Shown: positions 31,695 through 61,848 of the stretch, in pieces
Position numbering within the stretch: position 1 is the first letter of the stretch
How the letters are laid out: each line of letters opens with the position of its first letter
From: a virus
DNA length: 64,000 nucleotides
IMG/VR virus record: IMGVR_UViG_3300028299_000002
Location: 21,970 to 85,969 of that record
Strand: one strand, 5' to 3'
The notes under the pieces: generated by a model
What the model saw: only the letters and a program-made list of their open reading frames with translations
The model's database searches: none
Told to the model about the DNA's origin: nothing
Position numbers and translations under genes: made by a program

Positions 31695-31704
31695 ACATTT
31701 CTCC

Positions 31705-31749
31705 AAAAAAATAGCCCATAATCATTGGTGAGTTCCAACAATTACGGGC
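31705..31749 (-). terminator. Intrinsic terminator/attenuator immediately before the protease RBS
   Basis: 15-bp stem GCCCGTAATTGTTGG/CCAATGATTATGGGC (3 G-U pairs), 6-nt loop, then UAUUUUUUU. Confidence 0.75.
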
Positions 31750-34164: not shown

Positions 34165-34193
34165 TATAATACATGCAATTCCAGATTTGTCCT
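34165..34193 (-). promoter_or_regulatory. Conserved early-type promoter motif, copy 1
   Basis: AGGACAAATCTGGAATTGCATGTATTATA; also at 35644 and 61820. Confidence 0.7.
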
Positions 34194-35576: not shown

Positions 35577-35589
35577 TTTTTAACTCCCC

Positions 35590-35617
35590 GCCCTGCCGGT
35601 TAAGACAGGGCTTTTTT
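35590..35617 (+). terminator. Hairpin plus T-tract (plus-strand terminator; 5'-UTR hairpin on minus)
   Basis: GCCCTG-N10-CAGGGC-TTTTTT. Confidence 0.5.
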
Positions 35618-35643: not shown

Positions 35644-35672
35644 TATAATACATGCAATTCTGAAATTGTCCT
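35644..35672 (-). promoter_or_regulatory. Conserved early-type promoter motif, copy 2
   Basis: AGGACAATTTCAGAATTGCATGTATTATA. Confidence 0.7.
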
Positions 35673-35909: not shown

Positions 35910-36863
35910 TTATTCTAATATTAACCGAATGAAATCCAATATATGTTGATCTTCGGATGTCATTGACTTTTCAAGTAATGACCTGTATTTCTCAAAATAT
36001 GGTTTCAATATTGGTTTGATCAGACTGATTCGATTACTGGCATAACGTCGATCCTTACCAAGTTTTTTACTGATTTCGTCCAATGTCTGCGGCGTTTTAT
36101 ATTTACCTATCCCCAGGTACATTTGAATTATTTGATAATCAACGTTTTTAATCTTCCCCTGTTTCTGGAGTTTCTTTATCGGTATCATTAGCCTTTCAAT
36201 TTGTGGTATATCAGAATTTAACTGAATATCATCACTGGATGAGACATTATCATCTATTGGTTCAATTGTATTTGCCTTATTAGTCTCAATCCGATTGACA
36301 ATCTCTAATGTTTTTTTAGCATCGTACATTTCACCGGTTTTATTGTATTTCAATTTAATATTGTTGGCAATTGTCTCAGCATCCGGATAGTTCCCATGGA
36401 TTTTATAATACTTATCTTTAAATTTATCAATTACCCGTCTATGCCGAAGATCATAGTACGATAAATTAACCTGTGATTGCAACTTTATTCCAACGCCCCA
36501 CATAGCACCGGATATTCGTTTGTTCATAATGATTTTCAGTTCATTCTTATTTATTTTCCGTTTGATATTATCATTATACGTCTTAATACAGGCCATACGA
36601 CCGGCGGCCAACATATCCGCAAATGTTCCGATCGGCTGACCATCATAATATTCCACTCCGACATTGAGTTTATTCGCTATGTTTTTCGCCATCCCAACAT
36701 AATATCTGATATTATCCGTAAAATAGTCTGCCCCGGCCTCACTAACTTTTCTAAGTCGGTCCATGCCTTTTTCACCATATTGGATATTACCATGTTTATC
36801 AACCCAATATTGTCCACCCCTGATACCGGGATTTTTAATATTAACTGCTTTTATTATTATCAT
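35910..36863 (-). CDS. Sigma70-family sigma factor-like protein with N-terminal PGxRGG tag
   Basis: Region 2-like DMLAAGRMACIK, region 3-like HGNYPDAETIA, region 4-like TLDEISKKLGKDRRYASNRI. Confidence 0.7.
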   Translation of the reverse strand: MIIIKAVNIKNPGIRGGQYWVDKHGNIQYGEKGMDRLRKVSEAGADYFTDNIRYYVGMAKNIANKLNVGVEYYDGQPIGTFADMLAAGRMACIKTYNDNIKRKINKNELKIIMNKRISGAMWGVGIKLQSQVNLSYYDLRHRRVIDKFKDKYYKIHGNYPDAETIANNIKLKYNKTGEMYDAKKTLEIVNRIETNKANTIEPIDDNVSSSDDIQLNSDIPQIERLMIPIKKLQKQGKIKNVDYQIIQMYLGIGKYKTPQTLDEISKKLGKDRRYASNRISLIKPILKPYFEKYRSLLEKSMTSEDQHILDFIRLILE

Positions 36864-37098
36864 GTTCGCCCCTGGATATTTTTTTTATAACATATTTAAA
36901 TGTCATAAAATTTGTTGGTAAATTGAACTCATTATTACATTTAGCACACATTCCCCACACTTTATTCCGATCACGTAGAATATACATTTGATAGTACATT
37001 GTTATCGATGGGTCTTGTTTAAATGGCCGAACTATTCGATAACCGCAATTACTACATTTGCCATTATCTAATGTCCCCTTTATCCGTGGTCTACTCAT
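36841..37098 (-). CDS. Zinc-ribbon protein (Com-like)
   Basis: CSNC...CAKC. Confidence 0.55.
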   Translation of the reverse strand: MSRPRIKGTLDNGKCSNCGYRIVRPFKQDPSITMYYQMYILRDRNKVWGMCAKCNNEFNLPTNFMTFKYVIKKISRGEHDNNKSS

Positions 37099-37348
37099 GC
37101 GATGCCAATATATTAGTCATCATATAATAGGCTTTTTCTGCCTCTGCCCGAACTGTTTTAATCTCTGCATATTCCTGTTTCTCTCTGTCTGACAGGATTG
37201 TTTTTTGAGATAGTATTTTGATTCTTGACGTTGCATTATCATGGATAGATTTTGCCTCTTTAATCAACTCCCGTGTTTCTGCCAATGTCTGAGATAATAC
37301 CTTATCGGTGCTTTTAAGTCGCTCTGAAATAACTGACGCTGCTCCCAT
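37091..37348 (-). CDS. Hypothetical coiled-coil protein
   Basis: 85 aa, GGAG RBS. Confidence 0.55.
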   Translation of the reverse strand: MGAASVISERLKSTDKVLSQTLAETRELIKEAKSIHDNATSRIKILSQKTILSDREKQEYAEIKTVRAEAEKAYYMMTNILASHE

Positions 37349-37356
37349 GATCTCTC

Positions 37357-40300
37357 CTATATCACAAATACAATTTTATTGGATTTCATTAACACACCCT
37401 GATCATCGGTACGTTTAGCATTATCGACTAAACTCATTACCGATTTCTTATCCTCAAGCCTGGTTTCGGTTCGAATATCATGTGGTGTATCTGTCAATAC
37501 TAAATGACCGTCAACTGTCATTTCTTTGGGTACGCCTGTCCGGTTCGAACGGCTGAAGAACTGGTCTATTGTCGAATAACTATTTGCTCCACTTGCCATT
37601 GCAATAGCGGTCGTTGCCCCCATTTCGCCAGGCTTGCCGGTATATTGCAGATTCAATCCCTCTGTACCGGCATCGGTATGGATGGCGAACCGGACATTCT
37701 TATCGGTTCTGAAACTGGTTTTGTTTTTATCAATATCATCCAACTTCGTTTTTCCGTCAAATCTGACAATCCCGGACCCTGGATAATTTTTCTTTAAATA
37801 GCGTTCGATCTCGTTTACTGTACCGTATTGCTGTGCATAGATCAGTACCTTTTCGTCCGGCCCCTTTGTTTTGATATGCTCATTAATGATATCGCCCATT
37901 TTGGTAAACTTCTCATTATTTTCAAACTTGGTAGAGTTCAATACCCGGTTTAATTTCTGGTCCCGTTGCAGTACATCAAACTTTTTCGCTTTATAGTCTT
38001 CCATTGTCTTTTTATACTGTGTTTTTTGAATATCTGACAACCCGGCGTTATGAATATGCTGATTGAATGTATGTTGGAGATCCTTGCGAACTGTAAAAAC
38101 CCTGTCATCAATCTCTCGATGCAGTATTTCAGTCAGTTTATCCTTCATTCCTGCGCCACGATGAAGATTTTTGTACTTTTCCATAAAGGCTTTTTGATTC
38201 CCATATTTTTCTGGATCAATGGTCTTCAGATAGAAATAGAGTTCAGACAGATCGTTGGGAGTCGGTGAACCGGTACCCGCAACGAAATACGGCATTGACG
38301 CTGCCAGATCAGACAATCCTTTGCTCATCCCGGATGATCCACGACCTTCCCGTTGTGTTGATTTATGCGCTTCATCGACAATCATCATATCAAAACCGGC
38401 ACCTTTAATAATGTCATTATCAAACAGGTACTTTTCTTTATTGACCAATACAATCGTATTCGGATCACTATTATAGAGTTTTTGACGTGCATTTTTATTC
38501 GATGAATCAACGATTATAACATTAAAATCAGAGAATTTCTTAACCTCATCGCTGAAATTCGGCATCAGTTTCTTTGGCATAGAAATAATAGTTTTCGGCA
38601 TCTTACCCGTCTGTTCTCTGATCTCTGCGATGGCAGACAGGTAGGCCGCGCTCTTGCCGGTCCCGGCCTCGAAATTCAGATATGCCCGTTTTTCCTTAGC
38701 GATTAGTCGTGCTGCTGATTGTTGATGTGGAGTAATTACCAATTTCTGCGATACCCCGTTTTTATCCGGCGGTAAATATGCGTTCAGTCCTTCAGGCAGA
38801 TAATCACTAATATTCGCTTTACCGGCCTTAATATCTGATGTAGTCATTTCACCAATCTGTTGCTTGGTAACTATCGGACGTTCTTTGATCATTTTCTCAA
38901 ATGCGGCTGGCCGGATAGTCATTTTATAACTACCTTCGCCCAACATTGTAATATTGACATCGGACTTATTTAATTTCAGTTTATCCCTTATAGAATTGAG
39001 TCTCGAACGGCTCGAAGATGAGAATTCCATATTTCTCTTTTTATTCTCGAATTGATATAACAATTCCGCCGCCTGGTTTAATGATCCCTCAGCCTGGCCA
39101 TAACTCTCATAGGCTCTCTGAATATACTGCAATGCTGTTGCATTGGCCTGTACCCGATCGCCAAACAAGGCACCTTCGCCATGACCAAAATTCTTTGTCC
39201 TTTGCGCCCTGTCCAGATATTTATCTCCATTCTGCATTCCATTTTTAGCAACATTCTGGCCGTGTTTTTCAATGTACTTTTTAAGATTACTTATCTCATT
39301 GCCGTATTTATCGGCTCCCATGCTGTTTTCAAGATAGTAATTCATTAACATGGCAGCATTGCTCGATCCCAATGTCTTGTAAGTGTCCAGGTCCATAATA
39401 CTATTCCCGGAAGACTCACCGGTTATCCCGATCATGGCCTCAAATCCACCTTTGGTAATATTTCGGGCAATTGTTGTTGATCCCGTCCCCTTACCTGTAA
39501 TTTCCTCACCTTGCTTATTTATTCCGCCCCTGGTGTTGATAATCAGTCGGTAATGATCATCTATCTCCATTTCAACCGCTTTTTCGTTTTTCAATACTTC
39601 CAGAATTTCATCATTACTCATTGGTTTGATTTCCATGATATCACTACCACCGGTATACTTCACCTTATTCTGCAATATTTTTGAAACGGCTGACTTTTCA
39701 CGTTGATAGGCTTTGATCTGGTAATGAAATTTCAGAAATTCCTCTGCATTTTCTTTGATGATCTCCCGAAGATGTTTCTTTTCGTCCGGTAAATCCGTTG
39801 TATCTGATCCAAGCATAGCCTCTTTAGCCTCAGATATAACCTCGTCAATGGCCTTATCACGCTCAGATTTAATTTTATGGAGCTGTTTTAACCGTTCAAT
39901 ATTCCGTTCCTTTGTATCGGCTATTTTGGATATGTCTTTTTCGATTTTATCCCGTTCCTCTTTGCTTATATCGGTTTGAACGCCCAATTTCTCACGGATT
40001 TTACTATGCAATTCCTCTTTTGTCTGTTTTTGGGCAGTCTCAATCTCTTTTTTACGGTTTACGGCCTCGTCACGTTCATCTTCACTTAATTCCGGCTTTT
40101 TGTTATCGGTTTCCTCTTTTTTGGCCTCATCATTTTTAGCACTCTTTGGCTGTAATACTTTGTGAGTTAGTCCCGATTTACCAGGTGCCCAGGCAATTGT
40201 TGCGGTACCATCACTATGGGGAACAATAAATATATGTCGCCCGTGCATCGGACTTGATTTGTCGGTAATTGTGATCCACTTACCACCCGGATATTTCTGT

Positions 40301-43300
40301 TGCATCGAACCACTGAAAGACTTGATGATATAACGGATGGATTTCTTGATCTTCGTTTGTTCTACAAGTTTATATTTTCCATCGTCAATATTTTTAAGAA
40401 ATTCTGTTGGTGATTCATACGATTTATCAACTATTTCACCATTCTCATCTAATTTTTCTACGGCTACATATATTCTACCGGAATTATTTTTATCAATAGA
40501 GACATTGGCCTTGTAATCGTCAAAATAATATATCTGTGATTTGTTGTATTTTTCTAATTCAGTGACCGGCGATAACTCATAACTGTCATATTCTTCTTTT
40601 GGTAATGGCTTCGAATAAACTACTAACCCATATCTGCTTCCATCATCTTCCCAACGGACGTAACCAAATTGTTTATCGCTTGGATAGGTGCCTATACTGA
40701 ATGGCCGATAGCATAATTGATATTTGTATTCTAAAGTCTTTTTATCATCCTGTTTAGTTTTCCGGTTCTGATAATCATGTACCGTAGATATTTTTCCAGA
40801 TTTGGTTTTCCGGGTATGTTGTTTGACGTGAGACTTAAATATGAAACGGTAATTCATCTTTGCTCCAATTGGTTGCGATTTATAAATATCAATTGTCTTA
40901 TTATTAAATGTCCCACGATTATCCACCGCTTTGATTTGATTGGCTTTTAAGGTAATCCATACCCTGTGCTTTATATCAGAATTGGTTGCAATACCACCAA
41001 TATGAGTTATCCCATCATATCCATTTTCTTTGACAATTTTCTTTATGATTACATCGTTTAGATACTCTTTATCAACACTATCGCCAAACATCCCCATTTT
41101 AACGGCTGTTAATTCTTTTAATGCAGCATAAAAATTAAGGTACGTTTTGGCATCTAATAATTTGTCTTTATACAGTTTTTTATATTTATTTTCATTCCAT
41201 GTGAATCCATACGGTGCATGTTTAGACTGTTCATCATGGAAATTTTTTAAACCCTCTTTTATTTCAGGTGTATCTAATACTTTTTGTTTCAAGGATTCTG
41301 GTATCGGATCATCCATATTCAGCGGATTTTTGATATTCAGATACACCGAATATGTCATAGGTTCTAATGGCTTTAAATTCTTTTTCAGGCGACTATAAAA
41401 CTCCCGGTCTGTTGGCATGTGTTCTTTGTGCATGTATTTAGAGCTATCAATATATTGATTTAATTCAACATCACTCATATTGGGAACGCTTTTCAGACTG
41501 GCTATTCTTTTCTTTAGTGCAGCTCGTCGGCTTATCAACCAACCAGGTGATATTGATCCATAACCATATTTACTGCCAAGTTTATAATATTCCCGATAAT
41601 CCTTTAGTCCCTCTGACTCTTTTATCATTTTCAGAACATCAGCCAGTTTCTTTTCATTTTCCTTAACACATTGGGACGCAATATTATTGATCGTCTTTCT
41701 TACTTCTTTATCCTGAAGATTATATAATTCATCATAGGACGTGCCTAATAATGGTATATCCAATCCCTTTTCTTTGTATGAATCGGCAACTTCCTTATTT
41801 TCGGTAAAATAGAATCCTTTACCCATTAATCCCGGCAATAGAGTATTGGGATCAAATGCTTTAAATCCACCATAATGAGTACCATGAAATACAATAAGCG
41901 GTTTACCGGTTTTATCGATAACCTTACTGGATTTATCCGGTTCATTTTCCCAATCCCCAAACCATGCTTTAAATTCAGGGCTTTTTATATTTAATGATTT
42001 ATAATTTTCTATCCCCCTATTGATAAGATAATTTGGCAAATCCTTTTGGGTTTGTTGAGCATATATACCCTCTTTTACCTGCACGAACTTTCCGATATTC
42101 AATCCGGTGCGCAACTTGAATATTTCTTCCATCCTCTTTTTACGTTCTTTCATCCCGGAAGTAAGCAGGGGACGACTTATTAATGTCCTGTAATCATCAA
42201 TATATTTTTGCCGCCATTTTTTTGACTTCCATTTTGGATTTTTTTGAACACTATTATCGTATGATTTCACCCGTACTATTTTACCCCGACTGCTTGCTCT
42301 TACATGCTGCTTTACATGCGATTTGAAGATGAATCTTACCGACTTCGTTATATCCGGGTCTTTCGGGTCGAATGTACCTCGATTACCGATTGCTGATTTG
42401 ATCTGATTCGGATTGAATGCTATCCAGTTATCATAATTCAATTCAGGATATTTGGTTTTACCAGATTTAATATAAACTCCGTCATATCCATTTTTTATCC
42501 CCCATTCTCTCATTGATAAGAAATAATTCCTACTGCTTTCATATTGGCCCTTGTCGTATTTCGCTCCCTCTACGCCTCTCCAAAAATCAAGGTCTTCCGC
42601 AAAATCTTCCGCCTCTAATTCAATTGGATTTGTGATCTTGAGATATACAGGGATAATATTTCCGCCCTCTTTGTCCGCAAATTCATTGGCAAGTTTTATA
42701 TCCGTTGCAAAATAAAATCCATAATGAGCAGATGGATGAGCTGATCTACCAAGCATCATTTCATCAAATATTTTGAAATTCTCATTCGTCCCGTGATAAA
42801 CCACCAATGGCTTTCCATCCTTATCCACAACCTTAGAATTACCGAACCACTTTTCGAATTCCGGCGTATCGGTTACGGGTATTTTATTCCTCAATTCATT
42901 CTGTTTTGCAAGTTTCAGAATTGCTTCATTGCCATGCTGAAAATCCTTTGTGCTGGCTGCCTTTGTTAATAAACCCGGTTTGAATGTCGTATATCCATCA
43001 GTCAATGCTTTATCAACTGCCTCTAATTTTGTTTTGCAATAGGATTCACCACTGAATCCCTTTTTATCGAACCATGTAATTTGCCATTTATAATTCTCAT
43101 CGGAACTTTTCCTGATCAATGCTCCAAGCCAATAACCATCACCATTGGCCATTAATTCCATTGGTTTATTGCCGTATTTATGATTCCAGTATTTTAAGGC
43201 CAAATGTGCTTGTAATTTTGTCGTTATCGGCAGTGCATGATATTTTGAGATTTCATTCAAGTCCAGTATGTGCTTAGAATAAAGAATTCTCTTATGAACT

Positions 43301-45831
43301 TTAATATCTCTATCTGTAATACTGGAAGATGATCTGAGTAGATAAGTATATTTGAATCCATCGCCCCTCAGATTGTCTCTTATGTCGTTATCCGGCTTTT
43401 CTTTTAAGTATATTTCAGCATAATCCACACCCTTTTGCTGAATAGCATCCATGATATTTGCATCATTCAATTTGATTATCTTATTATCGTAATCAGAGAC
43501 ATGCACTACTTTACCTGTCTTTGTAGCTCTGAAATGCGATTTTACATGAGATTTCGTTATATCCGGGTCTTTCGGATTAAATTCACCGCTATTACCAGTT
43601 GCCGATTTGATTTGAGTAGGTGAGAATACAGCATAATTACATGTACTATTCTCTTGCATTTTTATCCCATCGTAACCCAAATCATTTATTATTTTGAAAA
43701 TATCTTCTTTGGTAAGTTCAAATAGTGTCCAGTTATCTTGTTTTTTTAAATATGTTACCTTTTTCGAAGCCCTATACGAATGTATTGTGCTATGTACGTG
43801 ATCAAATATTGCTCTCCGATATTCATTATCACTAACATCCCCATTTATTCTGGCTTGTTTTAACTGATCGGCTGTATAGATATCATTATAAAGTCTATAT
43901 CCGTTTACTTCTACTGGTTTGCCGTCCATTAATAATGCTTTTTGTTCGTCGGTGATGTGATTTATTACATCGTATCTGCTATGTGTGGTATATATTACTT
44001 CGTCCTTCGTTTCTCCAATAAATAGATCATTATTGTAACCAAAATGATCCTCTCCAATTACTTTGCCAAATTTGGCATTATCAATCTGTTTTTGTTTCCA
44101 TTTTGGTGGTACTGATACATTACCATGCAATCTTCTTATAAAGCCTTTTTTGGTTAATATTTTACCCGCAAATCCATAATGAATTTTATCGGGTAAGGCA
44201 CTCATTAAGTTATCCAAATCAGGCTTATTATTCGGATTAAACAATTTCTCAGATTTTAAATATACCGGTAAAACAATTGCACTATTATCTATACCCCGAT
44301 CAATTGCTTTTGTCTCAGCATAATCTCTGGCAAAATTCTGATCGTCGGAAAAAAAGAAGTTGTTACCCCTAAAAGCCTTGAATTTATATAATGTCCCGTG
44401 ATAAACCACCAATGGCTTTCCATTTTTATCCACAACTTTAGAATCACCAAACCACTTCTTGAATTCCGGTGTCTCGGTGATAGGTGTCTGTTTCTTCGTT
44501 TTCCGGTTCTGATAATTCCTGACCTGGACGATTTTACCTTTAGAAGATACTCGTTGATGTGCTATGACTTGCGATTTATTTAATGATGAGAATCTATTTA
44601 TGGCATAATCTATCAGTTCATTGAATTTGCGCTTTGCATCCATTGACGCATATTGTTTTTTCTCGTTTAAATTATCCGACATTTCAACAAATGCCTGTTT
44701 CATTTTCTTAATATCATTGGTTTTAGCAACTACATCAAATTTGGATTTTTGCTCACTGATTATCTTTGCCTCACTTATATCCCGGTAAAGTTTGTCAATT
44801 ATACCCCAGATATTAAAATTGCTTCGATAACTTGCTTTTGATAAAATGTTGCCAGTATTTTGAACATAACTTTCAATAATTCGTTGTTCTTTGTCTGTCG
44901 GAGAAAAACCCTCAAAAGACATTCCTAATTGTTTTAACGGTACATTTTCAGAAACAAATTTCTCCCATTCCTGATCATTCATTGTTCGTCGCATTGAATA
45001 AAGTATCGTCAGCTCTTTATTTCCCGCCGCCTCTTTTTGTATCTGTACCCACATTTCAGGCATATATCTACGGATATATCCATGATAGGTCATTTTCGTA
45101 CCGTCTTTTAATTCAACTCCCCATCGAAAATAGTGATTTGATTCATCACTTTTATACCAGTAATCTTCTTTGTTTTCATACACTTCGTTTGCAAAAGCAA
45201 GTCGGTCATTCCCATAATTATCGACATAATCCATTTTCGGAGCATTCAGGTCTTTAAAACTATTCAACCGCCTGGCAATAACAGGTGGTTTACCACTTTT
45301 GGTTTTCTTATTCTCGTAATCCTTAACACTAATCATCTTGCCGGTTTTGCTCGTTTTAGTGTGGGACTTTACGTGCGATTTCTCGATCTTCTTACCCTTC
45401 TTCTCAATCCTCTTTTTGAATGTTTCCATATCCAGTATATCATAACTCTGGAGATACTTTTTATAGTCATCATAATGCTCTTTGAAGGTTTTCAAAGCAT
45501 CCGGCAATGTATCAAATCCCAGAAATACCTTATCCTCATCATATTTATTATTATCGGGATGTTTGATGTGAATGACATAGACCTTATCCGATTCTTTATT
45601 TGGTCCAACAAAGCAATCCAAATGATCACCATCAGTTCCCAATGTCCCCCGGATATAACCATAAGGGATTTTCATTTTCGTTTGCCATTCGCCGTTTTTA
45701 TCCTCTCCACGGCGGATTGATCCCTTACGGTTCTCGACACTTATAGGTAGTCCCTGGAATACTGTTTTATAATGAAGTTTGCGGCTCTTGAATATAAACC
45801 GCACATTACTGAGTATTCTCAAATCATTCAT
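37357..45831 (-). CDS. Giant polyvalent protein: InPase-like, 3x ART-PolyVal-like, DarA_C-like, SNF2 helicase
   Basis: GDHLDCFVG/DEDKVFLGF; three PEFxxWFG..YHGT..GYDG..QIKS domains; YRPFSIGTYP..YELSP; AGTGKS, DEAH, TEGLNLQ. Confidence 0.85.
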   Translation of the reverse strand: MNDLRILSNVRFIFKSRKLHYKTVFQGLPISVENRKGSIRRGEDKNGEWQTKMKIPYGYIRGTLGTDGDHLDCFVGPNKESDKVYVIHIKHPDNNKYDEDKVFLGFDTLPDALKTFKEHYDDYKKYLQSYDILDMETFKKRIEKKGKKIEKSHVKSHTKTSKTGKMISVKDYENKKTKSGKPPVIARRLNSFKDLNAPKMDYVDNYGNDRLAFANEVYENKEDYWYKSDESNHYFRWGVELKDGTKMTYHGYIRRYMPEMWVQIQKEAAGNKELTILYSMRRTMNDQEWEKFVSENVPLKQLGMSFEGFSPTDKEQRIIESYVQNTGNILSKASYRSNFNIWGIIDKLYRDISEAKIISEQKSKFDVVAKTNDIKKMKQAFVEMSDNLNEKKQYASMDAKRKFNELIDYAINRFSSLNKSQVIAHQRVSSKGKIVQVRNYQNRKTKKQTPITETPEFKKWFGDSKVVDKNGKPLVVYHGTLYKFKAFRGNNFFFSDDQNFARDYAETKAIDRGIDNSAIVLPVYLKSEKLFNPNNKPDLDNLMSALPDKIHYGFAGKILTKKGFIRRLHGNVSVPPKWKQKQIDNAKFGKVIGEDHFGYNNDLFIGETKDEVIYTTHSRYDVINHITDEQKALLMDGKPVEVNGYRLYNDIYTADQLKQARINGDVSDNEYRRAIFDHVHSTIHSYRASKKVTYLKKQDNWTLFELTKEDIFKIINDLGYDGIKMQENSTCNYAVFSPTQIKSATGNSGEFNPKDPDITKSHVKSHFRATKTGKVVHVSDYDNKIIKLNDANIMDAIQQKGVDYAEIYLKEKPDNDIRDNLRGDGFKYTYLLRSSSSITDRDIKVHKRILYSKHILDLNEISKYHALPITTKLQAHLALKYWNHKYGNKPMELMANGDGYWLGALIRKSSDENYKWQITWFDKKGFSGESYCKTKLEAVDKALTDGYTTFKPGLLTKAASTKDFQHGNEAILKLAKQNELRNKIPVTDTPEFEKWFGNSKVVDKDGKPLVVYHGTNENFKIFDEMMLGRSAHPSAHYGFYFATDIKLANEFADKEGGNIIPVYLKITNPIELEAEDFAEDLDFWRGVEGAKYDKGQYESSRNYFLSMREWGIKNGYDGVYIKSGKTKYPELNYDNWIAFNPNQIKSAIGNRGTFDPKDPDITKSVRFIFKSHVKQHVRASSRGKIVRVKSYDNSVQKNPKWKSKKWRQKYIDDYRTLISRPLLTSGMKERKKRMEEIFKLRTGLNIGKFVQVKEGIYAQQTQKDLPNYLINRGIENYKSLNIKSPEFKAWFGDWENEPDKSSKVIDKTGKPLIVFHGTHYGGFKAFDPNTLLPGLMGKGFYFTENKEVADSYKEKGLDIPLLGTSYDELYNLQDKEVRKTINNIASQCVKENEKKLADVLKMIKESEGLKDYREYYKLGSKYGYGSISPGWLISRRAALKKRIASLKSVPNMSDVELNQYIDSSKYMHKEHMPTDREFYSRLKKNLKPLEPMTYSVYLNIKNPLNMDDPIPESLKQKVLDTPEIKEGLKNFHDEQSKHAPYGFTWNENKYKKLYKDKLLDAKTYLNFYAALKELTAVKMGMFGDSVDKEYLNDVIIKKIVKENGYDGITHIGGIATNSDIKHRVWITLKANQIKAVDNRGTFNNKTIDIYKSQPIGAKMNYRFIFKSHVKQHTRKTKSGKISTVHDYQNRKTKQDDKKTLEYKYQLCYRPFSIGTYPSDKQFGYVRWEDDGSRYGLVVYSKPLPKEEYDSYELSPVTELEKYNKSQIYYFDDYKANVSIDKNNSGRIYVAVEKLDENGEIVDKSYESPTEFLKNIDDGKYKLVEQTKIKKSIRYIIKSFSGSMQQKYPGGKWITITDKSSPMHGRHIFIVPHSDGTATIAWAPGKSGLTHKVLQPKSAKNDEAKKEETDNKKPELSEDERDEAVNRKKEIETAQKQTKEELHSKIREKLGVQTDISKEERDKIEKDISKIADTKERNIERLKQLHKIKSERDKAIDEVISEAKEAMLGSDTTDLPDEKKHLREIIKENAEEFLKFHYQIKAYQREKSAVSKILQNKVKYTGGSDIMEIKPMSNDEILEVLKNEKAVEMEIDDHYRLIINTRGGINKQGEEITGKGTGSTTIARNITKGGFEAMIGITGESSGNSIMDLDTYKTLGSSNAAMLMNYYLENSMGADKYGNEISNLKKYIEKHGQNVAKNGMQNGDKYLDRAQRTKNFGHGEGALFGDRVQANATALQYIQRAYESYGQAEGSLNQAAELLYQFENKKRNMEFSSSSRSRLNSIRDKLKLNKSDVNITMLGEGSYKMTIRPAAFEKMIKERPIVTKQQIGEMTTSDIKAGKANISDYLPEGLNAYLPPDKNGVSQKLVITPHQQSAARLIAKEKRAYLNFEAGTGKSAAYLSAIAEIREQTGKMPKTIISMPKKLMPNFSDEVKKFSDFNVIIVDSSNKNARQKLYNSDPNTIVLVNKEKYLFDNDIIKGAGFDMMIVDEAHKSTQREGRGSSGMSKGLSDLAASMPYFVAGTGSPTPNDLSELYFYLKTIDPEKYGNQKAFMEKYKNLHRGAGMKDKLTEILHREIDDRVFTVRKDLQHTFNQHIHNAGLSDIQKTQYKKTMEDYKAKKFDVLQRDQKLNRVLNSTKFENNEKFTKMGDIINEHIKTKGPDEKVLIYAQQYGTVNEIERYLKKNYPGSGIVRFDGKTKLDDIDKNKTSFRTDKNVRFAIHTDAGTEGLNLQYTGKPGEMGATTAIAMASGANSYSTIDQFFSRSNRTGVPKEMTVDGHLVLTDTPHDIRTETRLEDKKSVMSLVDNAKRTDDQGVLMKSNKIVFVI

Positions 45832-48800
45832 TTATTCACCACCGAATACTGATTTCCGTAGTTCTTTCTGTTTGCGAATGACCTTAAACATCTTGTCAAA
45901 TTCTTTATTTATAGTTGTTCTTTCCTCTTTTTCCGGATATGGTATTGCGATAAAACCATCTATCATAGGCACTATAATTTCTCCATGAGCTCGATAAACA
46001 AGAAAATCACTCTGGTTTCCTTTACCCTTGATCTTATCCTCTATATAGGCCGCAAATGCTCTGGCTGCCATCTCATGTGGTTCGCTCCAATAATCACCAA
46101 CCCGCGCTTGGTCCAACTTTTTCGCTTCAATCGCATAGGATGTCGGGACAGATTTTGTCTTTACAGTTGATTTCTTTGCATCATTAACCATTTGTAAACG
46201 ACCATCATATATTTTCATTGCAGCTGCAAGTTCATCCATACATCCATACCTGTTTTGATTATCAAAACCAGATCGTCCTCTAACATCTTTATATATTTTG
46301 CTAATAGATTCAAGCGTATCAGAGGAAAAATGACCGGAACCATATCTGCTTTTACTATTAGTGGATGGATAGTATTTTAATTTCAGGTCTTTCCCTTTTA
46401 TCAGTAGTTTGGTCAATTTGTCAAATTCGGCAAGTTGTTCCTTTGACGCTGGTAATAATCCCCTCGTATTACTTCGCCAGGTATATGTTTTAGTCAGATC
46501 GGATTTAAGGTCTTTTCTAATTGAATCAATAGAACTTTTTATTTGTTCCCGCGCTTTATTGACAAATATATCGACCTTTTCCCTGTCTTCGACATATTTC
46601 ACAGGCTTTTTATAAATATTATCCATTAGACTTTTAAAAGTAGCAATCATTTCCGGTTTTAATTGGGAATGATAACCTTCACCATGACTAATAAAATTCC
46701 TATCGATGTTCGTTTTCCTAAATACCTTATCGCCATTGTCATTTATTATCTTTTCGGATGGTGACTTTGAATCTTTACGTGCAAAATAGTGATCCAGGGC
46801 GTGAAAATACTCGTGCCCTAATGCCCCCGCACCCTTCATTTTAGTCAAGTTGATTACACCATAATCCAGTTCATAATGAGCTTTTGCACCGGACAATCCT
46901 GCGCCCCTTGCCCCAAATGCAATTGCCAATTCACCACCAAGCATTAATTCACTCGGAGTTACACCTAATACATCCGCAAGGTCTAATAATCCATCATAGG
47001 CGTGATTCAATACCTGTTGACGTTCAGATTGATTATTCCAATTACCAAATTCAATGCCTCTTGGTTTGAACTTTTTCATAAACATTTCAGGAGTGGCATC
47101 TTGATTCCTTCTTACGGTTCCTCTTCTAATCGCTATTTCGGGAGCGGGTAATATTTCTTCCCCAAAAGTAGTTTTCGTTTCCAATAATTCTTCAGCATGT
47201 TTTACCATGTATAATTTTGCCTCTTCTTCAGTTGCAAATGTCCGATCTACAATTTTCAGAAACTTCCTGTCTGTTATCCTTTTTAATATTGAATATCTGT
47301 CCTTTTCATTTCGATCTTGGAATACCCTGAATTTTTCCGCAACTGCATATAATGGTATCGCCTTTTCAGCCTCTTTTTCTGAATTATATACGGAATCCCG
47401 CCTGGTTGCTAATCCATATTTATCACCCTTTTTGCCAATTACCCAACCACTCCCATCAACTCTTTTCAATACTATATATTTATCCCGCCACGGTGACAGA
47501 GTATTCTTTTTTGTCGTCCGTTTATTTCTGGAATAGCCAAATTGCGCCGTATCCTTTCTTGCCCCACCTATCTTTTTACCAAAATCAATGATATTGCCCT
47601 CTTTGCGTCGTGCCAATACTTTCTTTTTCGCCGCTCCGGTTACTTCTTTCCAATCTTCAGGCTTGCCGGTACTTTTAATCTTCTTCCACATGGTCCCGTC
47701 TTTATGAACCGACACATGTCCAACCGGGAACACTTTACCCCTGATTAGAAAATGAACAGATTTTAATAACTTACCGAAATCAAATTTCAGACTGAATTTT
47801 ACTTTACCCCCCGTAGTATCTATTTCAGTGTAATAATCCATTGCACTGTTGTTCAATAGTTCAAATCCACTGCCAGGATAATATTGCCCGTCGTTCTTTC
47901 CCGTTGTATATATCATTTTGTTCTTATTGTGATCGCAGTAGATAACACTGTCTTGATTATACTGCTTCCCAAGTTCAACGAGTTCTTTGTCCTTGACATT
48001 CGGGACCATAACCATATAACTGTCTTCAATTTCGCCATATTTACCGGTGACTTTTACAAATTTCAATCCCTTTTTAATAAGGTCTTCCCGTAGTTTCTTC
48101 TCACGGTTTTTTATATCCGGTTCCGTTAGTTTTTTATCATCGGGATCATTGGGATTAATCCCGGCGCTGATAAAGCCTACAATGCCATATTTTAATAACG
48201 TAGTGACTTCCTTTTTGGATAAATGTATTTCACCGCCTTTACCAGGCATATCTTGTTTACATTTCTCAGATAGCGATTCAGGTATTTTGGCATTGTGATT
48301 GTTTTTCGAATCCTCTTTAGGCAATTCCCATGACCGATTTATTGGATGCCCGGAACTTACCGGACTCTTTTTAGTCTTCTTATTCGTATATTGATTTACG
48401 GTTACTAATTTCCCGCTTGCACTCATTTTCGTATGTTGCCTGACTATCGATTTGAATAGTTCAAAGGATTTTCTTACCCATCTTTTCTTCCGTGTTTCCT
48501 TCTTCACATTCTGTTTTGTTAGATATTGTTGTACCGAGCCACCGCTATGAAAAAATGCGTCTGCCGTTTCCAGCTCTTTCACGATGGTCGATAAATAATT
48601 CTGGAGTAATTTCAACTCCTCTTTGGTTTTGCCAAGTTTCCCCTGCTGCTTCAGTATCGCCGGTGCCAGTTTGTAATTCTTATTGTCAATGATCCTTTCC
48701 GCCGCTTTGACCACATTACCCAATAATCCGGCTAATTGACGTTTAACCGCCTCAACCTTGTTATTATTGATCTGGCTTATACCGGTTATGACATTACTGG

Positions 48801-51414
48801 ATTCCGGTGATCCGAAGAATGATGTTTGGTTCTGTGCCTGTTTATATCGTGATACAATCCCATCCAGTTCATCTTTACTGATCTTCTTTTTCGAGTCGGT
48901 GATCTTTTTCAATACCTCAAACTGGAATTGTGATCTCAATCCGGCCAATCCGATTAATATACCGTGAGATTCCGCCAAATCACCATGTCTGATCAGATTG
49001 CTTATTTCCGGGATCAATGTGGTAAGTGATAATTTTCGTTGTACGGTTAATGGAGATACGCCCACACGTTCGGCAATTTCTTCATAACTCATATCAACGT
49101 CTTTGAGTTTTTTATAGGCATTGGCCGTTTCAATCGGATTCATCTCTTGACGGGCAAGATTTTCCGCAACCTGGATGGCATAAAGTTCTTTTTTATCCTT
49201 GACATCTAATATCTGTGCCGGGATAGTTGGTAATCCGGCCAGTTTAGATGCTCTCCAACGCCGTTCACCAAATATAATTTTATGTGTACCGTTTTCAATC
49301 GGTCGTACTCCAATCGGCTGCATCAATCCGATTTTACGGATGGAGTCACCCAATTCTTTTAATTTCTGCTGATCAAAATCAACCCGTGGCTGGTCCTCGT
49401 CCCGGACAATCATATTAACACTAATTTCCTGAACATTGGCCTTGCTTTTTGGGATCTCCCCTGATGATCCAAATAGGGATGTCTGACTTGGTTCTTCCGG
49501 CTTTTTGACTTTAGAGTTCTCATACGGATTAATAAGTACCATCTTTCCGGTTTCTGTAGTCCGGAAATGACCAGATACGTGGGATTTGAATAGGAGGCGG
49601 ATGGATTTATGCAATTTGACAATTTCTTTATCATTTACCCATGTTCTATTATCATTACCTTTTTCATCCTGATATTGAATACAATATATTGGTTTACCTT
49701 TATCCGTTTTATCCAATTGACATACTTTGCCGGTCAATGTTCTTGATTTATGACCGTATAATGCCCCAATATCCTTCTGATGGATAGTTACTTGATCATA
49801 TAATCGGATTTTTGTTTTTATTTGATTTTTGATCTCATTATTACTTTTTTTTGAATAGTAATTGTATATCTCATCATAATTCATATATTTTTTAGAACGT
49901 GATCCGATTTCTTGATTAATAAATTTGCAAAAATGATCTGGCAGTATATCGACTATATAATCATAAGAAACATTTTTATTATTCCTATTTGCTTCATATA
50001 ATTTGAACCAGAATGAACCGTCAGAAAAATATGGTGGTTCGCCCATTATAAAACGCCTTAAATCATCTCCCGATTTTCTTGATTTAATTTCTTTAATAAA
50101 TACCGGAAGGATAATCTTTTGATTCTTTTCAATATCTGATGTTAGCAATGGATATTTGATATTTGTCGCACCCGGTATTTTAGTTTTGGAGTTACTATAC
50201 TCTCTCACACTCGCAATCTTACCCAAGGCCGTTACCCGTGTATGTGCCTTTACATGGGATTTCTCTATTTTACCACCCTTTTCATCCTTCGCTGGTTCGA
50301 TCCGTTTGCCCTTATCGTTTTCCGGTGTCAGTTCGCTCCATACCTCAATGAAGTTCTGCTCATCTTCAGTAAATAGTTCATCATAATCATCCGGTGTATA
50401 CTTACCGCCCGGTTCATTCTTTTTATTTACCTTTGGCAATTCAAACGTATCGCCCTTACTTTTCGCTAAGGCAAATTTCCGGGACAGTTTACCTTCCAGG
50501 TATCCGTTTAACAGTTCCGGTGATATATAATTAGTTCTGCATACGTTTGGTGTATTACCCAGATGTTCAGAAACAAATTTCAATGCTTCCGCAACAACCT
50601 TTTTACGCTCGTTATCTTCACCCTTGTTTCCTGCATTAAGCAGCTGTTTTGTGAATTCAGCATTGGCCCTGAATGTCCGTAAATCCTTCGCCGTTAATCC
50701 GTATATACCAAGATATTTATTCACTCCATCGGAATTGACATTGCCCTTTGCGTCAATCTCAAATAACCGTTCCCCAGGCAATTGCTGTAATTGTCTTAAT
50801 GATTCTACCACAACCGGATCGGTGATCTCATGGGATTGCTCAACACTTTTTTTACCGATATAATTCAGAGTAACCGAATTCTCATTGAATATCACATGTT
50901 TTTTCAACAATGTGGTTATTCCATGAGTATCATTGCTTTCGGTATATTTTTCATTACCAACACGACCACCCGTTAAATCAATAATACGAACGGCCAAAGC
51001 AGTATATTTCTTAACCATATTGCTGCCGTTGATATCGTTATTTACGGCTTCCCGGAGTTCCGGGAGTCGATGGATCGCATTGGTGATCCGTTTATATTTT
51101 TCGCCTTGTTTTTGATCTACAAACTGCTGCTGATATCGCCGTTGTAACCTGCCCTTACTATCACGCCATTCATGGGTATATTTATCGTGCTTATCATAAG
51201 CATAGGCATGTTTAGCGTCTTCCGGGATGCCATGTTTTTTATATTCCGATGGATCAATAGCCTGGCGTTTAGCGGCCTTATTTTCCTTTGGTTTGGCTTT
51301 TCGCCCTGTCGGACGTTCACCATATTGAACATCGCCCTTTTTATCAATCCAATATTTGCCGCCTCTGGCTCCCGGTCGTTTGATTTTCGATGTCGATTTG
51401 AATATAAATTTCAT
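45832..51414 (-). CDS. Giant polyvalent protein: topoisomerase IB, ParB, DUF3293-like, LPD5/zincin/LPD1
   Basis: DSKGRLQRRY, GGRVGN, KDLRTF, LGNT..NY; QPIGVR..GERRWRA..ENLARQ; NQDSV; FGKKIGGARKD, HEYFHALDH, EMAARAF. Confidence 0.85.
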   Translation of the reverse strand: MKFIFKSTSKIKRPGARGGKYWIDKKGDVQYGERPTGRKAKPKENKAAKRQAIDPSEYKKHGIPEDAKHAYAYDKHDKYTHEWRDSKGRLQRRYQQQFVDQKQGEKYKRITNAIHRLPELREAVNNDINGSNMVKKYTALAVRIIDLTGGRVGNEKYTESNDTHGITTLLKKHVIFNENSVTLNYIGKKSVEQSHEITDPVVVESLRQLQQLPGERLFEIDAKGNVNSDGVNKYLGIYGLTAKDLRTFRANAEFTKQLLNAGNKGEDNERKKVVAEALKFVSEHLGNTPNVCRTNYISPELLNGYLEGKLSRKFALAKSKGDTFELPKVNKKNEPGGKYTPDDYDELFTEDEQNFIEVWSELTPENDKGKRIEPAKDEKGGKIEKSHVKAHTRVTALGKIASVREYSNSKTKIPGATNIKYPLLTSDIEKNQKIILPVFIKEIKSRKSGDDLRRFIMGEPPYFSDGSFWFKLYEANRNNKNVSYDYIVDILPDHFCKFINQEIGSRSKKYMNYDEIYNYYSKKSNNEIKNQIKTKIRLYDQVTIHQKDIGALYGHKSRTLTGKVCQLDKTDKGKPIYCIQYQDEKGNDNRTWVNDKEIVKLHKSIRLLFKSHVSGHFRTTETGKMVLINPYENSKVKKPEEPSQTSLFGSSGEIPKSKANVQEISVNMIVRDEDQPRVDFDQQKLKELGDSIRKIGLMQPIGVRPIENGTHKIIFGERRWRASKLAGLPTIPAQILDVKDKKELYAIQVAENLARQEMNPIETANAYKKLKDVDMSYEEIAERVGVSPLTVQRKLSLTTLIPEISNLIRHGDLAESHGILIGLAGLRSQFQFEVLKKITDSKKKISKDELDGIVSRYKQAQNQTSFFGSPESSNVITGISQINNNKVEAVKRQLAGLLGNVVKAAERIIDNKNYKLAPAILKQQGKLGKTKEELKLLQNYLSTIVKELETADAFFHSGGSVQQYLTKQNVKKETRKKRWVRKSFELFKSIVRQHTKMSASGKLVTVNQYTNKKTKKSPVSSGHPINRSWELPKEDSKNNHNAKIPESLSEKCKQDMPGKGGEIHLSKKEVTTLLKYGIVGFISAGINPNDPDDKKLTEPDIKNREKKLREDLIKKGLKFVKVTGKYGEIEDSYMVMVPNVKDKELVELGKQYNQDSVIYCDHNKNKMIYTTGKNDGQYYPGSGFELLNNSAMDYYTEIDTTGGKVKFSLKFDFGKLLKSVHFLIRGKVFPVGHVSVHKDGTMWKKIKSTGKPEDWKEVTGAAKKKVLARRKEGNIIDFGKKIGGARKDTAQFGYSRNKRTTKKNTLSPWRDKYIVLKRVDGSGWVIGKKGDKYGLATRRDSVYNSEKEAEKAIPLYAVAEKFRVFQDRNEKDRYSILKRITDRKFLKIVDRTFATEEEAKLYMVKHAEELLETKTTFGEEILPAPEIAIRRGTVRRNQDATPEMFMKKFKPRGIEFGNWNNQSERQQVLNHAYDGLLDLADVLGVTPSELMLGGELAIAFGARGAGLSGAKAHYELDYGVINLTKMKGAGALGHEYFHALDHYFARKDSKSPSEKIINDNGDKVFRKTNIDRNFISHGEGYHSQLKPEMIATFKSLMDNIYKKPVKYVEDREKVDIFVNKAREQIKSSIDSIRKDLKSDLTKTYTWRSNTRGLLPASKEQLAEFDKLTKLLIKGKDLKLKYYPSTNSKSRYGSGHFSSDTLESISKIYKDVRGRSGFDNQNRYGCMDELAAAMKIYDGRLQMVNDAKKSTVKTKSVPTSYAIEAKKLDQARVGDYWSEPHEMAARAFAAYIEDKIKGKGNQSDFLVYRAHGEIIVPMIDGFIAIPYPEKEERTTINKEFDKMFKVIRKQKELRKSVFGGE

Positions 51415-54138: not shown

Positions 54139-55269
54139 TCATCTCAATTCTGGATTTTTATCAAGCCATTTACGTCGTTCAGCGTCTTCTTCATCACTGC
54201 TGACATATTTTATTTCACCGTCCTTGATATACATATATTCACTGTAGAATCTGACCCACCGGCACCTCCCACTCACATGACACAATACCCCCGGACTTGC
54301 CAATTCGTGATGTTCACGGTTTACATATCCCTTATCTACCTTTTTACGTTTCGCCGTAGACCTTCCTATATTCGTTTTGGTTGACCAAATACAGGTATCC
54401 CATATCTTTGCTATGCTTTGGTACTTATCGCTTGCCACGGGCAAATTAGCGTACTCCGGCGGTGGATTATCAATTACTTTCATCACCTTACCATGAATAT
54501 TATCCAAACACCATCCGCAAGCATCTATATGACTAACGCCTACCACATATTCACCGGATCGGACACCACTGATAAAACCGGCATTAACTAAAGTATTCAT
54601 TTCAGTAATGGCAATTCGCTCCATATCCCGGTTTAACATACTGTCATCACCAAATTGCTCAAATAAACGCTGTGCAAGGGTTTCAGGGCTTATACCATCT
54701 ATATTTGCATTGATCAATAATTGTCTAAGCCGATGCTGTGACGCTTCGCTAATACCTTTTATGTGTTCGGCGGCTAAATGTTCTGCCATATTAATATATC
54801 TGACCTGTTCCCAGGTTAATTTCCCCTGATTTATGGCATCCCGGACAGATTTAGGTAAATTTGCAAGGTCTAATGCAATCTCTTTTTCACCCAATTCCAC
54901 CATGGCTCCCACCAGGAACGATTTCAGGACCAGTTCAGTGATACGTTCGATCGGAATACCAAATAATTTTGCTAAGAATTCCTGAAATTTATCAATGTCT
55001 TTATCAGACATTTTCTTTTTTAACAGGTTTTTTTCGGTAATGTACTTTAGGACACTTTCATTCAGATCCTTGCGTTTCCACAATTGACCGTAATATTTGT
55101 TCTCAAGTTCGGCAATTATCTTATTTTCACCATCGCCGGGTTTCAACCGGTGTGCGTGCTTGGACTTATTCAGTCCCAATACTTCAATCAAACCATCTAT
55201 GACAATGGATTTCTCAAATCTCGTTGCATTCATTAACTGTTCAGGAATTTGGATATTTATCTCTGACAT
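54139..55269 (-). CDS. Head morphogenesis protein (SPP1 gp7 / Mu gpF-like)
   Basis: DMERIAITEMNTLVNAG, DACGWC, CHVSGRCRW. Confidence 0.85.
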   Translation of the reverse strand: MSEINIQIPEQLMNATRFEKSIVIDGLIEVLGLNKSKHAHRLKPGDGENKIIAELENKYYGQLWKRKDLNESVLKYITEKNLLKKKMSDKDIDKFQEFLAKLFGIPIERITELVLKSFLVGAMVELGEKEIALDLANLPKSVRDAINQGKLTWEQVRYINMAEHLAAEHIKGISEASQHRLRQLLINANIDGISPETLAQRLFEQFGDDSMLNRDMERIAITEMNTLVNAGFISGVRSGEYVVGVSHIDACGWCLDNIHGKVMKVIDNPPPEYANLPVASDKYQSIAKIWDTCIWSTKTNIGRSTAKRKKVDKGYVNREHHELASPGVLCHVSGRCRWVRFYSEYMYIKDGEIKYVSSDEEDAERRKWLDKNPELR

Positions 55270-61819: not shown

Positions 61820-61848
61820 CGTAATACATGCAATTTTAGAATTGTCCC
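61820..61848 (-). promoter_or_regulatory. Conserved early-type promoter motif, copy 3 (overlaps terminase stop)
   Basis: GGGACAATTCTAAAATTGCATGTATTACG. Confidence 0.65.

Follow-up and report, generated by a model that had tools for sequence, protein, structure and literature searches.

To our knowledge, all virion-delivered transcription machines, those of N4, crAss-like and phiKZ-like phages, are complete RNA polymerases (RNAPs), and the known phage sigma factors (phiEco32 gp36, SPO1 gp28 and T4 gp55) are all made after entry. Literature searches gave no report of a virion-packaged sigma factor; a single sigma peptide is on record for phage SU10, found along with many non-structural proteins in the same preparation, and so it is not evidence of packaging. 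The polyvalent proteins of phages are capsid-internal and thought to be ejected with the DNA; in the survey of Iyer et al. 2017 (PMC5512222) sigma factors have 0 occurrences, and autoproteolysis by zincin domains was proposed. In phage T4 the capsid targeting sequence (CTS) is a short N-terminal signal on unrelated cargo with a head-protease site behind it, and Alt is processed at its two ends (PMC9026906). In P1 the first 30 residues of DarB suffice for capsid targeting (PMC9024508). Here we describe a 317 amino acid sigma-like protein of a lake phage (IMG/VR record IMGVR_UViG_3300028299_000002, or G000; 90,580 bases), which shares its N-terminus with a giant topoisomerase IB (TopoIB) protein. 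The window analysed is a stretch of 64,000 nucleotides (G000:C1:21970-85969), and its minus strand carries every gene. We think it on balance probable that the shared N-terminus is a two-part address label of phage polyvalent proteins.

The shared N-terminus consists of a short hydrophobic prefix and a basic hairpin that we call tag2 (positions are those of the window; h, hydrophobic):

35910-36863, minus strand: sigma-like protein, 317 amino acids (P0002)
36846..36863, minus strand: M-I-I-I-K-A, the prefix of the sigma-like protein (cut predicted at K5|A6); all homologues likewise begin with M-h-h-h-K-[A/S]
36768..36845, minus strand: tag2 basic hairpin on the sigma-like protein, residues 7-32 (motif scan, BLASTP)
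51394..51414, minus strand: M-K-F-I-F-K-S, the prefix of the TopoIB polyvalent protein (cut predicted at K6|S7)
51310..51393, minus strand: tag2 basic hairpin on the TopoIB polyvalent protein, residues 8-35

The two N-termini agree with the original prediction, and both tag2 copies come right after the first possible start codon in the respective open reading frame (ORF). After its prefix the sigma-like protein continues with V-N-I-K-N-P-G-I-R-G-G-Q-Y-W-V-D-K-H-G-N-I-Q-Y-G-E-K, and the 1860 amino acid TopoIB protein with T-S-K-I-K-R-P-G-A-R-G-G-K-Y-W-I-D-K-K-G-D-V-Q-Y-G-E-R-P; the common core, PGxRGGxYWxDKxGxxQYG, is basic and glycine-rich. The N-terminal 40 residues of the two proteins align by BLASTP with 18/36 identities (E = 3e-14). 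When the whole proteins are compared, the sole significant segment is residues 1-45 against 3-47 (E = 1e-9; all others E > 0.1), which bears out the claim that one module, confined to the first ~35 residues, sits on otherwise unrelated proteins. A six-frame regular-expression scan of the 90,580-base record found exactly two copies of the core motif. From the N-terminal match and the two-copy scan, we conclude that the observation is correct and not due to chance. All full-length homologues of the sigma-like protein keep the tag and the prefix, which form the best-conserved stretch, with near-invariant P, G, GG, YW, D, G and Y. The tag2 region is predicted, at low confidence, as a beta hairpin in both of our AlphaFold2 (AF2) models, one of the sigma-like protein and the second of a homologue 41% identical to it.

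How widespread is this module? The original prediction proposed a hidden Markov model search for the tag motif, and a 43-column tag2 profile searched against 1.84 billion (1.84e9) representative proteins matches 122 proteins at E<=1e-3, of which 28 reach E<=1e-10; many have 2-4 copies, and lengths go up to 2375 amino acids. We counted 155 copies in 115 protein clusters, 73 of them N-terminal (first 45 residues) and 82 internal. Their consensus reads basic-basic-x-V-[KQ]-x-P-G-S-R-G-G-K-[YF]-[WY]-[IY]-D-x-x-G-x-V-R-Y-G-E-[KR]-P, with a net charge of +4.9 per 38 residues compared to +1.3 for the whole proteins. Of the 155 copies, 60% have a hydrophobic stretch with a final K-[A/S] no more than 30 residues upstream, as against 9.8% of random positions drawn from the same proteins; most often this K-[A/S] is 6-9 residues ahead of the P-G of tag2, and many N-terminal tag2 proteins have the M-h-h-h-K-[A/S] prefix. 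The partner domains are LPD1, InPase, TopoIB, ParB, LigT, ART-PolyVal, SNF2, NUDIX, ddrB-ParB, RadC, RelA_SpoT and zeta toxin. In three proteins tag2 stands directly behind a portal domain (portal-tag-MuF, portal-tag-LigT and portal-tag-X). Since portal C-termini point into the capsid interior, these fusions are the strongest architectural hint that tag2 marks capsid-internal cargo. As a module tag2 is real and portable, and its ties to polyvalent and head-internal cargo of phages are strong. Judged by sequence, it is a genuine, undescribed and widespread junction or address module of putative capsid cargo, absent from Pfam.

Two side observations concern tag2 and its surroundings. Between the K|A site and tag2, 23/155 copies have the motif Q-[LIMVF]-x-[LIMF]-[FL], compared to 1.7% of random positions (example, A-E-Q-L-G-L-F-G; carriers include P0007, P0008, P0017, P0030, P0043, P0066 and others), and the 1860 amino acid protein of the window has S-Q-T-S-L-F-G at 49400-49480. 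The bacterial sliding-clamp-binding pentapeptide is Q-L-[SD]-L-F. By its sequence the motif looks like such a pentapeptide, which the new N-terminus would hold after cleavage. In addition, the SNF2 segment of the second giant protein of the window (2824 amino acids) starts, at 40270-40335 (minus strand) and after K-S-I-R-Y-I-I-K-S, with Y-P-G-G-K-W-I-T-I-T-D, a tag2-like G-G-K-W-x-x-x-x-D string without the rest of the module.

Tag2 is not the only tag at such junctions. The junctions of the 2824 amino acid protein consist of K-S plus another tag, tag1 (K-S-H-V-K-x-H-T-R...G-K...V..Y), and all ten tag1 copies are preceded by the invariant K-S. Homology of tag1 and tag2 was rejected (hhalign probability 0.4%); lacking profile similarity, the two are treated as positional analogues only. 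A third tag, tag3 (P-G-H-K-Y-I-[KR]-R-x(4-6)-G-x-[YW]-x-Y-x-Y), likewise stands behind an h-h-h-K-[S/A] strand in other contigs and alternates with tag2 within one giant protein:

L001 2615-2740; L002 1529-1650; L009 1386-1500 and 5430-5520; P0081 residues 128-165: tag3 sites

Thus, three unrelated hairpin-like tags occupy one architectural slot. This exchange of tags, together with the different domain order between relatives, would suit an explanation in which the K-[A/S] strands and hairpins are linker cassettes surviving as recombination joints, the tag on the sigma-like protein being a scar of shuffling. However, no other part of the sigma family (overall identity 41-49%) is as well conserved as the tag, which argues for selection on the tag itself. 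Moreover, the enrichment of K-S in the scaffold-protease and its place at the end of the capsid propeptide (see below) involve no shuffling. We regard recombination joints as very improbable.

In appearance tag2 resembles the basic adaptor domain of Paramecium bursaria chlorella virus (PBCV). Among the 1.84e9 proteins, the tag2 profile also matches P0120 (hmmsearch E-value 4.2e-4), an HNH protein in which the PBCV-specific basic adaptor domain occurs four times (PF08789, E = 5.8e-20). By hhalign, tag2 and P0120 match with a probability of 89.5% (E = 2e-6; 50% identity over 26 columns), the motif being short enough for convergence to be possible. At E<=10, PF08789 itself has no match to the tag (P0001) or to six tag2 proteins, P0120 scoring 71.6 bits. 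DUF4124 (PF13511; gathering score 22 bits) gives repeated 14-19-bit matches on the hairpin core, at profile positions 17-41. Tag2 has in common with PF08789 that a short, basic hairpin of the form G-x-R-G-G-x-Y-[YW]-x-[DN]-x-x-G-x-x-x-Y is attached to diverse enzymes; unlike PF08789, it has its own V-Q-x-P-G-S and Y-G-E-R-P flanks and the upstream K-[A/S] strand. Going by sequence, tag2 looks distantly similar to this domain of PBCV. The PBCV-1 kinases A278L and A282L, which have this domain, are abundant, DNA-associated virion proteins, present at ~400-530 copies per virion, and stay on the ejected DNA until DNase treatment (PMC3281028). By analogy, we propose that the tag2 hairpin may tether released cargo segments to the packaged DNA, so that they would leave with the DNA. 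It is equally possible, again by analogy, that tag2 would be a capsid-targeting signal, as with the first 30 residues of P1 DarB.

The other part of the label, the K-[S/A] strand, recurs in the head proteins of the same phage:

30153..31706, minus strand: fusion of a head maturation protease with a scaffold-like region that has many x-x-K-S sites (phrog_1028, E = 1e-20)
28529..30118, minus strand: major capsid protein with a ~35-residue propeptide ending in G-M-M-K-S (phrog_752, E = 2e-48)

The protease-scaffold has 14 K-S dipeptides, compared to 3.8 expected from its own composition (P = 4e-5), and 0 S-K. K-S is also frequent in the 2824 amino acid protein (39 versus 23 expected, P = 2e-3) and in the 1860 amino acid protein (24 versus 15 expected). 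In the capsid protein, G-M-M-K-S is at residues 32-36, and the homology to other capsid proteins begins at residue 37 (phrog_752) or at residues 32-39 (tblastn, cultured phages), as expected for a propeptide. In the HK97 capsid protein, Ser104 is preceded by Lys. The mature HK97 protein has this Ser104 as its N-terminus (PMC5701804). Because the hydrophobic K-[S/A] strand is the same motif as in the scaffold-protease and the capsid propeptide, it is most likely a head-protease cleavage site, as predicted from these sequences; by analogy, it might possibly be a targeting peptide like the T4 CTS. For the sigma-like protein, position and the shared K-[A/S] fit the T4-type arrangement of a short N-terminal peptide plus a head-protease site on unrelated cargo, with cleavage and targeting as predictions. 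Outside the head block, a single protein is as rich in K-S, the product of a 252 amino acid ORF in the tail region (17530-18288, minus strand; 5 K-S versus 0.5 expected, P = 2e-4); it may be another substrate of the protease.

Is the 317 amino acid protein a sigma factor? Its body lies behind the tag:

35967..36758, minus strand: sigma-70-like body with sigma2, sigma3-like and sigma4 domains (phrog_351, Foldseek, VIA-align)

The PHROGs family phrog_351 (RNA polymerase sigma factor) matches residues 139-291 with E = 8.4e-7. A profile of the family has two matches in the PDB, both to sigma region 4 (E = 0.19 and 0.47), with a convincing alignment of region 4.2. The AF2 model has a mean pLDDT (predicted local distance difference test score) of 69, and its top 50 Foldseek matches are all chains of the sigma-70 family, with E-values from 2e-4, probabilities of ~1.0 and 250-310 aligned columns. 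By VIA-align, sigma2 (model residues 39-129) matches the N-terminal domain of SigE (8b3z_C) with Z = 7.6, a root-mean-square deviation (rmsd) of 2.5 and 74/74 residues aligned (second model: Z = 7.2, rmsd 2.2), and matches sigma28 (9wsf_A) with Z = 7.9 and 7.4. Sigma4 matches sigma region 4 of 1rio_H with Z = 6.8, rmsd 2.3 and 61/61 residues aligned (second model: Z = 7.7, rmsd 1.8, 61/61). Both sigma2 and sigma4 therefore have the sigma-70 fold, at the level of fold and in AF2 models. The sigma70-like identity given by the original prediction is upheld in this sense, for a protein that is very divergent and falls below the curated thresholds. We conclude from the models that the 317 amino acid protein is a real, very divergent protein of predicted sigma-70 fold, for which sigma activity is a prediction.

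The same divergence, with no curated sigma model passed, could be expected of a packaged sigma-fold decoy, i.e., a protein that is not a sigma factor and that binds the host core RNAP or its beta flap to shut off or re-target host transcription. In the models the region 2 and region 4 folds are kept, which would be enough for core binding, and the neighbouring cargo consists mostly of host-takeover enzymes (ARTs, SNF2, TopoIB). A decoy accounts less well for a sigma4 that matches DNA-bound sigma4 over 61/61 residues (1rio_H, rmsd 1.8-2.3), for a recognisable region 4.2-like sequence, and for a family-specific promoter-like motif that co-occurs with the gene in three lineages. We consider a decoy improbable.

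The sigma-like gene ends a string of head and cargo genes, of which the following precede it:

55743-57599, minus strand: portal
54139-55269, minus strand: MuF-like gene
45832..51414, minus strand: polyvalent protein 1 (1860 amino acids), with TopoIB, ParB, SAM-lyase-like and LPD1 domains (Pfam)
37357..45831, minus strand: polyvalent protein 2 (2824 amino acids), with InPase, three ART-PolyVal, DarA_C and SNF2 helicase domains (Pfam)
36841..37348, minus strand: two 85 amino acid genes, one coding for a coiled coil and one for a CxxC...CxxC zinc ribbon, syntenic in L001-L003

The portal, the MuF-like gene and a 343 amino acid gene lie upstream of the polyvalent genes, and the two giant products are textbook polyvalent proteins sensu Iyer et al. 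2017 (PMC5512222). The gene order (portal, MuF-like gene, polyvalent 1, polyvalent 2, two small genes, sigma), in which frames overlap or abut, is identical from portal to sigma in three related viral contigs (L001-L003). The coiled-coil ORF comes directly after the 2824 amino acid gene and is overlapped by the zinc-ribbon ORF, the end of which is overlapped by the start of the sigma-like ORF. These overlapping ORFs therefore appear to form one translationally coupled string. On the 3' side of the sigma-like gene is a block of small genes, followed by the protease-scaffold gene and the major capsid gene. The sigma-like gene thus lies, as polyvalent genes do, among late/head genes, beside the portal and MuF. 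Pfam gave no family for the head protease, the portal, the MuF-like protein or the capsid protein. In the closest cultured relatives of the capsid protein (Pseudomonas phage Dolphis and others; 25-31% identity), there is no polyvalent/sigma block between portal and protease. A scan for T7-like RNAP (PF00940) gave no match, as did its positive control, so that it is uninformative.

The neighbours of the sigma-like gene have some peculiarities of their own. The stop codon of the 1860 amino acid gene abuts the start of the 2824 amino acid gene (45832/45831; window 45828-45835), whose product opens with an R-F-I-F-K-S junction; the two giant proteins may behave as one cargo unit of 4,700 residues. 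The C-terminus of the 85 amino acid zinc ribbon, F-K-Y-V-I-K-K, resembles the junction strands of the polyproteins, and the protein has a weak match, below cut-off, to Zn_ribbon_RPAB4 (RNA polymerase 7-kDa subunit zinc ribbon; 18.4 bits). A co-packaged partner and an anti-sigma factor are both possible roles for it.

In other phages the sigma module is found inside polyproteins. In P0013 (a protein of the L001/L003 phage) and in P0021 (49% identical to P0002) it is fused to downstream segments, in the order sigma module, L-L-E-K-S, short tail, junction of the K-S-I-K-Y-I-L-K-S type, tag1 and a domain of ~200 amino acids, joined exactly as in the two giant proteins of the window. P0081, of an unrelated lineage (21% identity), has tag2 at residue 461 and then a Sigma70_r3 segment (26.7 bits, threshold 25.3), which ends in L-Y-K-S and a short amphipathic tail. 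On the metagenome contig L009 it forms the C-terminus of a longer ORF (>=1787 amino acids) beside a Gp77 tail-adaptor gene; the ORF has the order tag3-ParB-tag2-RadC-tag3-?-tag2-sigma. P0081 was found in metagenome contigs and is absent from the viral contigs searched. The combination tag2-sigma-K-S-tail therefore recurs, alone or as the first or last segment of a polyvalent protein. Fused forms of greater length (572-2000 amino acids) were looked for in the sigma family and not found, a weak negative, since word sharing crowds out relatives.

These fusions bear on another explanation, namely that the protein is an ordinary intracellular phage sigma factor for middle or late genes, never packaged, with the hairpin as a mobile nucleic-acid-binding or adaptor module that, for example, holds phage DNA. 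The protein does stand alone in the window, and its basic tag (+4.9 per 38 residues) resembles the PF08789 and DUF4124 domains found on many kinds of protein. Such a sigma factor, however, would give no role to the K-[A/S] prefix or to the invariant K-S before the tail. It would have to account for the position of the gene at the end of a portal-MuF-polyvalent string with overlapping frames in at least three lineages, for a sigma segment fused into polyproteins with the same junctions, and for tag partners that are overwhelmingly polyvalent or head proteins. We think that the sigma-like protein probably belongs to the cargo class.

The C-terminus of the sigma-like protein has a second predicted head-protease site, its motif matching those of the scaffold-protease and the capsid propeptide. 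The LLEKS sequence and tail reported by the original prediction are present, and the K-S is invariant in the aligned homologues:

35964..35978, minus strand: L-L-E-K-S, predicted head-protease site K299|S300 (K-S invariant in 10/10 homologues)
35913..35963, minus strand: 17-residue C-terminal tail helix, predicted to lie on sigma4 at the site of the RNAP beta-flap-tip helix (VIA-align, two models)

When the C-terminal ~100 residues are compared by VIA-align, engineered chimeras of sigma4 and the beta-flap-tip helix take the first five places for both models: 8d5v (Z = 9.5 in model 1 and 10.6 in model 2), 8cyf (9.1, 10.3), 7kug (9.2, 9.9), 7kuf (9.0, 9.7) and 6ido (8.7, 8.9). These alignments (rmsd 2.8-3.4) cover nearly whole chains, up to 77/77 and 92/96 residues, and extend to the last model residue, whereas plain sigma4 aligns only to model residue 289 or 295. 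From the two aligned ranges we infer that the tail helix occupies the flap-tip-binding site of sigma4; the invariant K-S is predicted in the loop just before the helix. It is a hypothesis, based on these models, that a cut at K-S would unmask the flap-binding surface of sigma4, so that the protein would be silent in the cell that produces it and active in the next. A shared targeting helix in the sigma tail and the C-terminus of the protease-scaffold was also considered and dropped (weak by eye and unconserved in L001/L002).

A promoter-like motif is repeated in the record:

35646..35671, minus strand: GGACAA-N8-TTGCATGTATTA, directly downstream of the sigma gene
34167..34192, minus strand: second copy
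61822..61847, minus strand: third copy in the window
Genome positions 19380, 15253 and 10596: three further copies, left of the window

The exact 14-mer A-A-T-T-G-C-A-T-G-T-A-T-T-A has three copies in the window, and the fuller pattern GGACAA-N8-TTGCATGTA[CT]TA has six in the record, all on the gene strand, where the original prediction counted three. The copies lie 30-60 nt ahead of start codons. Downstream of them are small-gene blocks (at 61.8, 35.6 and 34.2 kb), an exonuclease operon, a 610 amino acid gene and a DnaD-like/DnaC-like replication pair; none of the six precedes a structural gene. A degenerate copy follows right after the sigma gene in L001 and L002. The link between motif and sigma-like protein is one of co-occurrence only. 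The invariant A-T-G-T-A-T or ATGTAT(T/A)A core resembles the phage sigma element of phiEco32, tAATGTATAtA (PMC4281155), which we take as a lead only. This resemblance also speaks for an intracellular sigma factor, as phiEco32 gp36 reads its core within one infection, and so does the motif copy right behind the gene; given the points against it above, we consider a sigma factor that is never packaged unlikely. The motif scores 9/12 as AGGACA-16-TATTAT and is not clearly non-canonical. The original interpretation is supported in part: the portable tag, the sigma-70 fold and the association with cargo stand, the promoters have to be revised, and packaging, injection and the redirection of host RNAP are predictions. 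As a side observation, the leader behind the copy at 35646-35671 has a G-C-C-C-T-G / C-A-G-G-G-C hairpin (35580-35615, minus strand), which extends to the first small gene's ribosome-binding site, G-G-G-G-A-G, and may be a translational or attenuation element.

Taken together, these features suggest the following scheme. The label would have two parts, a short hydrophobic strand ending in K-[S/A] and a basic glycine-rich hairpin of ~28 residues, which would be retained on the mature protein and hold cargo on the packaged DNA. In this scheme the sigma-like protein would be produced late, from the same operon as the polyvalent proteins, taken into the procapsid and trimmed at K5|A6 and K299|S300; the C-terminal cut would free the helix predicted to mask the beta-flap-tip site of sigma4. 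Because this helix is predicted to mask the site until the cut, the gene product would be a pro-sigma. Delivered with the DNA, the sigma factor would direct host core RNAP to the six GGACA-N16-TATTAT/TTGCATG promoters, ahead of replication, recombination and small-gene blocks. That the sigma-like protein is physically packaged, as its sequence predicts, seems to us somewhat probable. The whole chain through to early transcription is doubtful. Its fullest form, in which a pro-sigma is loaded by means of the label, activated when the capsid protease takes off a C-terminal mimic of the beta-flap tip, and injected, and then sets off the first transcription from six phage-specific promoters without host sigma or new protein synthesis, we would call rather unlikely.

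A number of points weigh against this scheme. With a single sigma module behind its tag, the protein lacks the two or more effector domains per polypeptide that mark the polyvalent class; being stand-alone and single-domain here, it is not itself polyvalent. It has no Pfam match at E<=0.1, the NCBIfam sigma models score 12-23 bits on it, far below their cut-offs, and a genome-wide scan with Sigma70_r2 (PF04542) and Sigma70_r4 (PF04545) gave no match at its gene. Tag2 stays below the Pfam thresholds of PF08789 and DUF4124 (PF13511) and is modelled with low confidence, at a pLDDT below 50. Since the head protease has no family assignment, cleavage at K|S rests on motif statistics. The packing of the tail on sigma4 is an AF2 prediction from shallow alignments (8-10 sequences) and is read from aligned ranges, not from residue-level contacts. 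The promoter-like motif scores as an ordinary sigma70-type site, so that the housekeeping sigma factor of the host could read it. No cultured carrier emerged from tblastn searches of the sigma-like protein and of tag2 against 50,697 phage records, which gave no match. The record, of the linear class in IMG/VR and with no terminal repeats, is 58% complete by the CheckV estimate, and another sigma factor or polymerase may therefore exist; statements on what the phage lacks are unsafe.

If an injected sigma factor is real, it would be a third and cheaper route by which a phage can seize host transcription at time zero, and the proteolysis of capsid maturation would be a switch that activates a regulator for the next infection and not the current one. 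By way of the same label, transplantable and general, any protein could then be loaded into such capsids. Tag2 offers a sequence handle for predicting the capsid-cargo proteins of phages and their cut sites and, if sufficient for loading, could serve as a protein-delivery tag in phage engineering.

How does this locus compare with the systems described so far? The giant proteins agree with the polyvalent proteins of Iyer et al. 2017 (PMC5512222) in carrying LPD1, InPase, ART-PolyVal, ParB, DarA_C and SNF2 and in lying beside portal and MuF-like genes, and tag2 is found almost only on such proteins. Unlike in that description, there are putative head-protease sites at every junction, and the junction tag is none of the Pfam LPD families. 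As with the T4 CTS and Alt, a short N-terminal signal would be placed on unrelated cargo, and the sigma-like protein is predicted to be cut at both ends; Alt is another injected modifier of transcription. In contrast to the T4 CTS and P1 DarB, the sequence is unrelated, the predicted cut lies between Lys and a following Ser or Ala and would take off no more than ~6 residues with the hairpin retained, and the label also occurs inside polyproteins. Bacillus pro-sigmaE and pro-sigmaK are pro-sigma factors, and T4 AsiA and Rsd bind sigma4 and compete with the beta flap. Like the former, our sigma-like protein would be inactive until a protease removes a pro-sequence, and like the ligands of the latter its sigma4 flap-tip surface would be masked; unlike in the Bacillus pro-sigmas, the pro-sequence predicted from the models would act within the molecule from its C-terminus, and the capsid maturation protease would remove it. 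The sigma-like protein is predicted to play the same role as phiEco32 gp36, SPO1 gp28 and T4 gp55, which redirect host core RNAP to phage promoters. As in N4, crAss-like and phiKZ-like phages, the capacity for transcription would be brought in with the DNA, but in the form of a sigma subunit and not of a complete polymerase.

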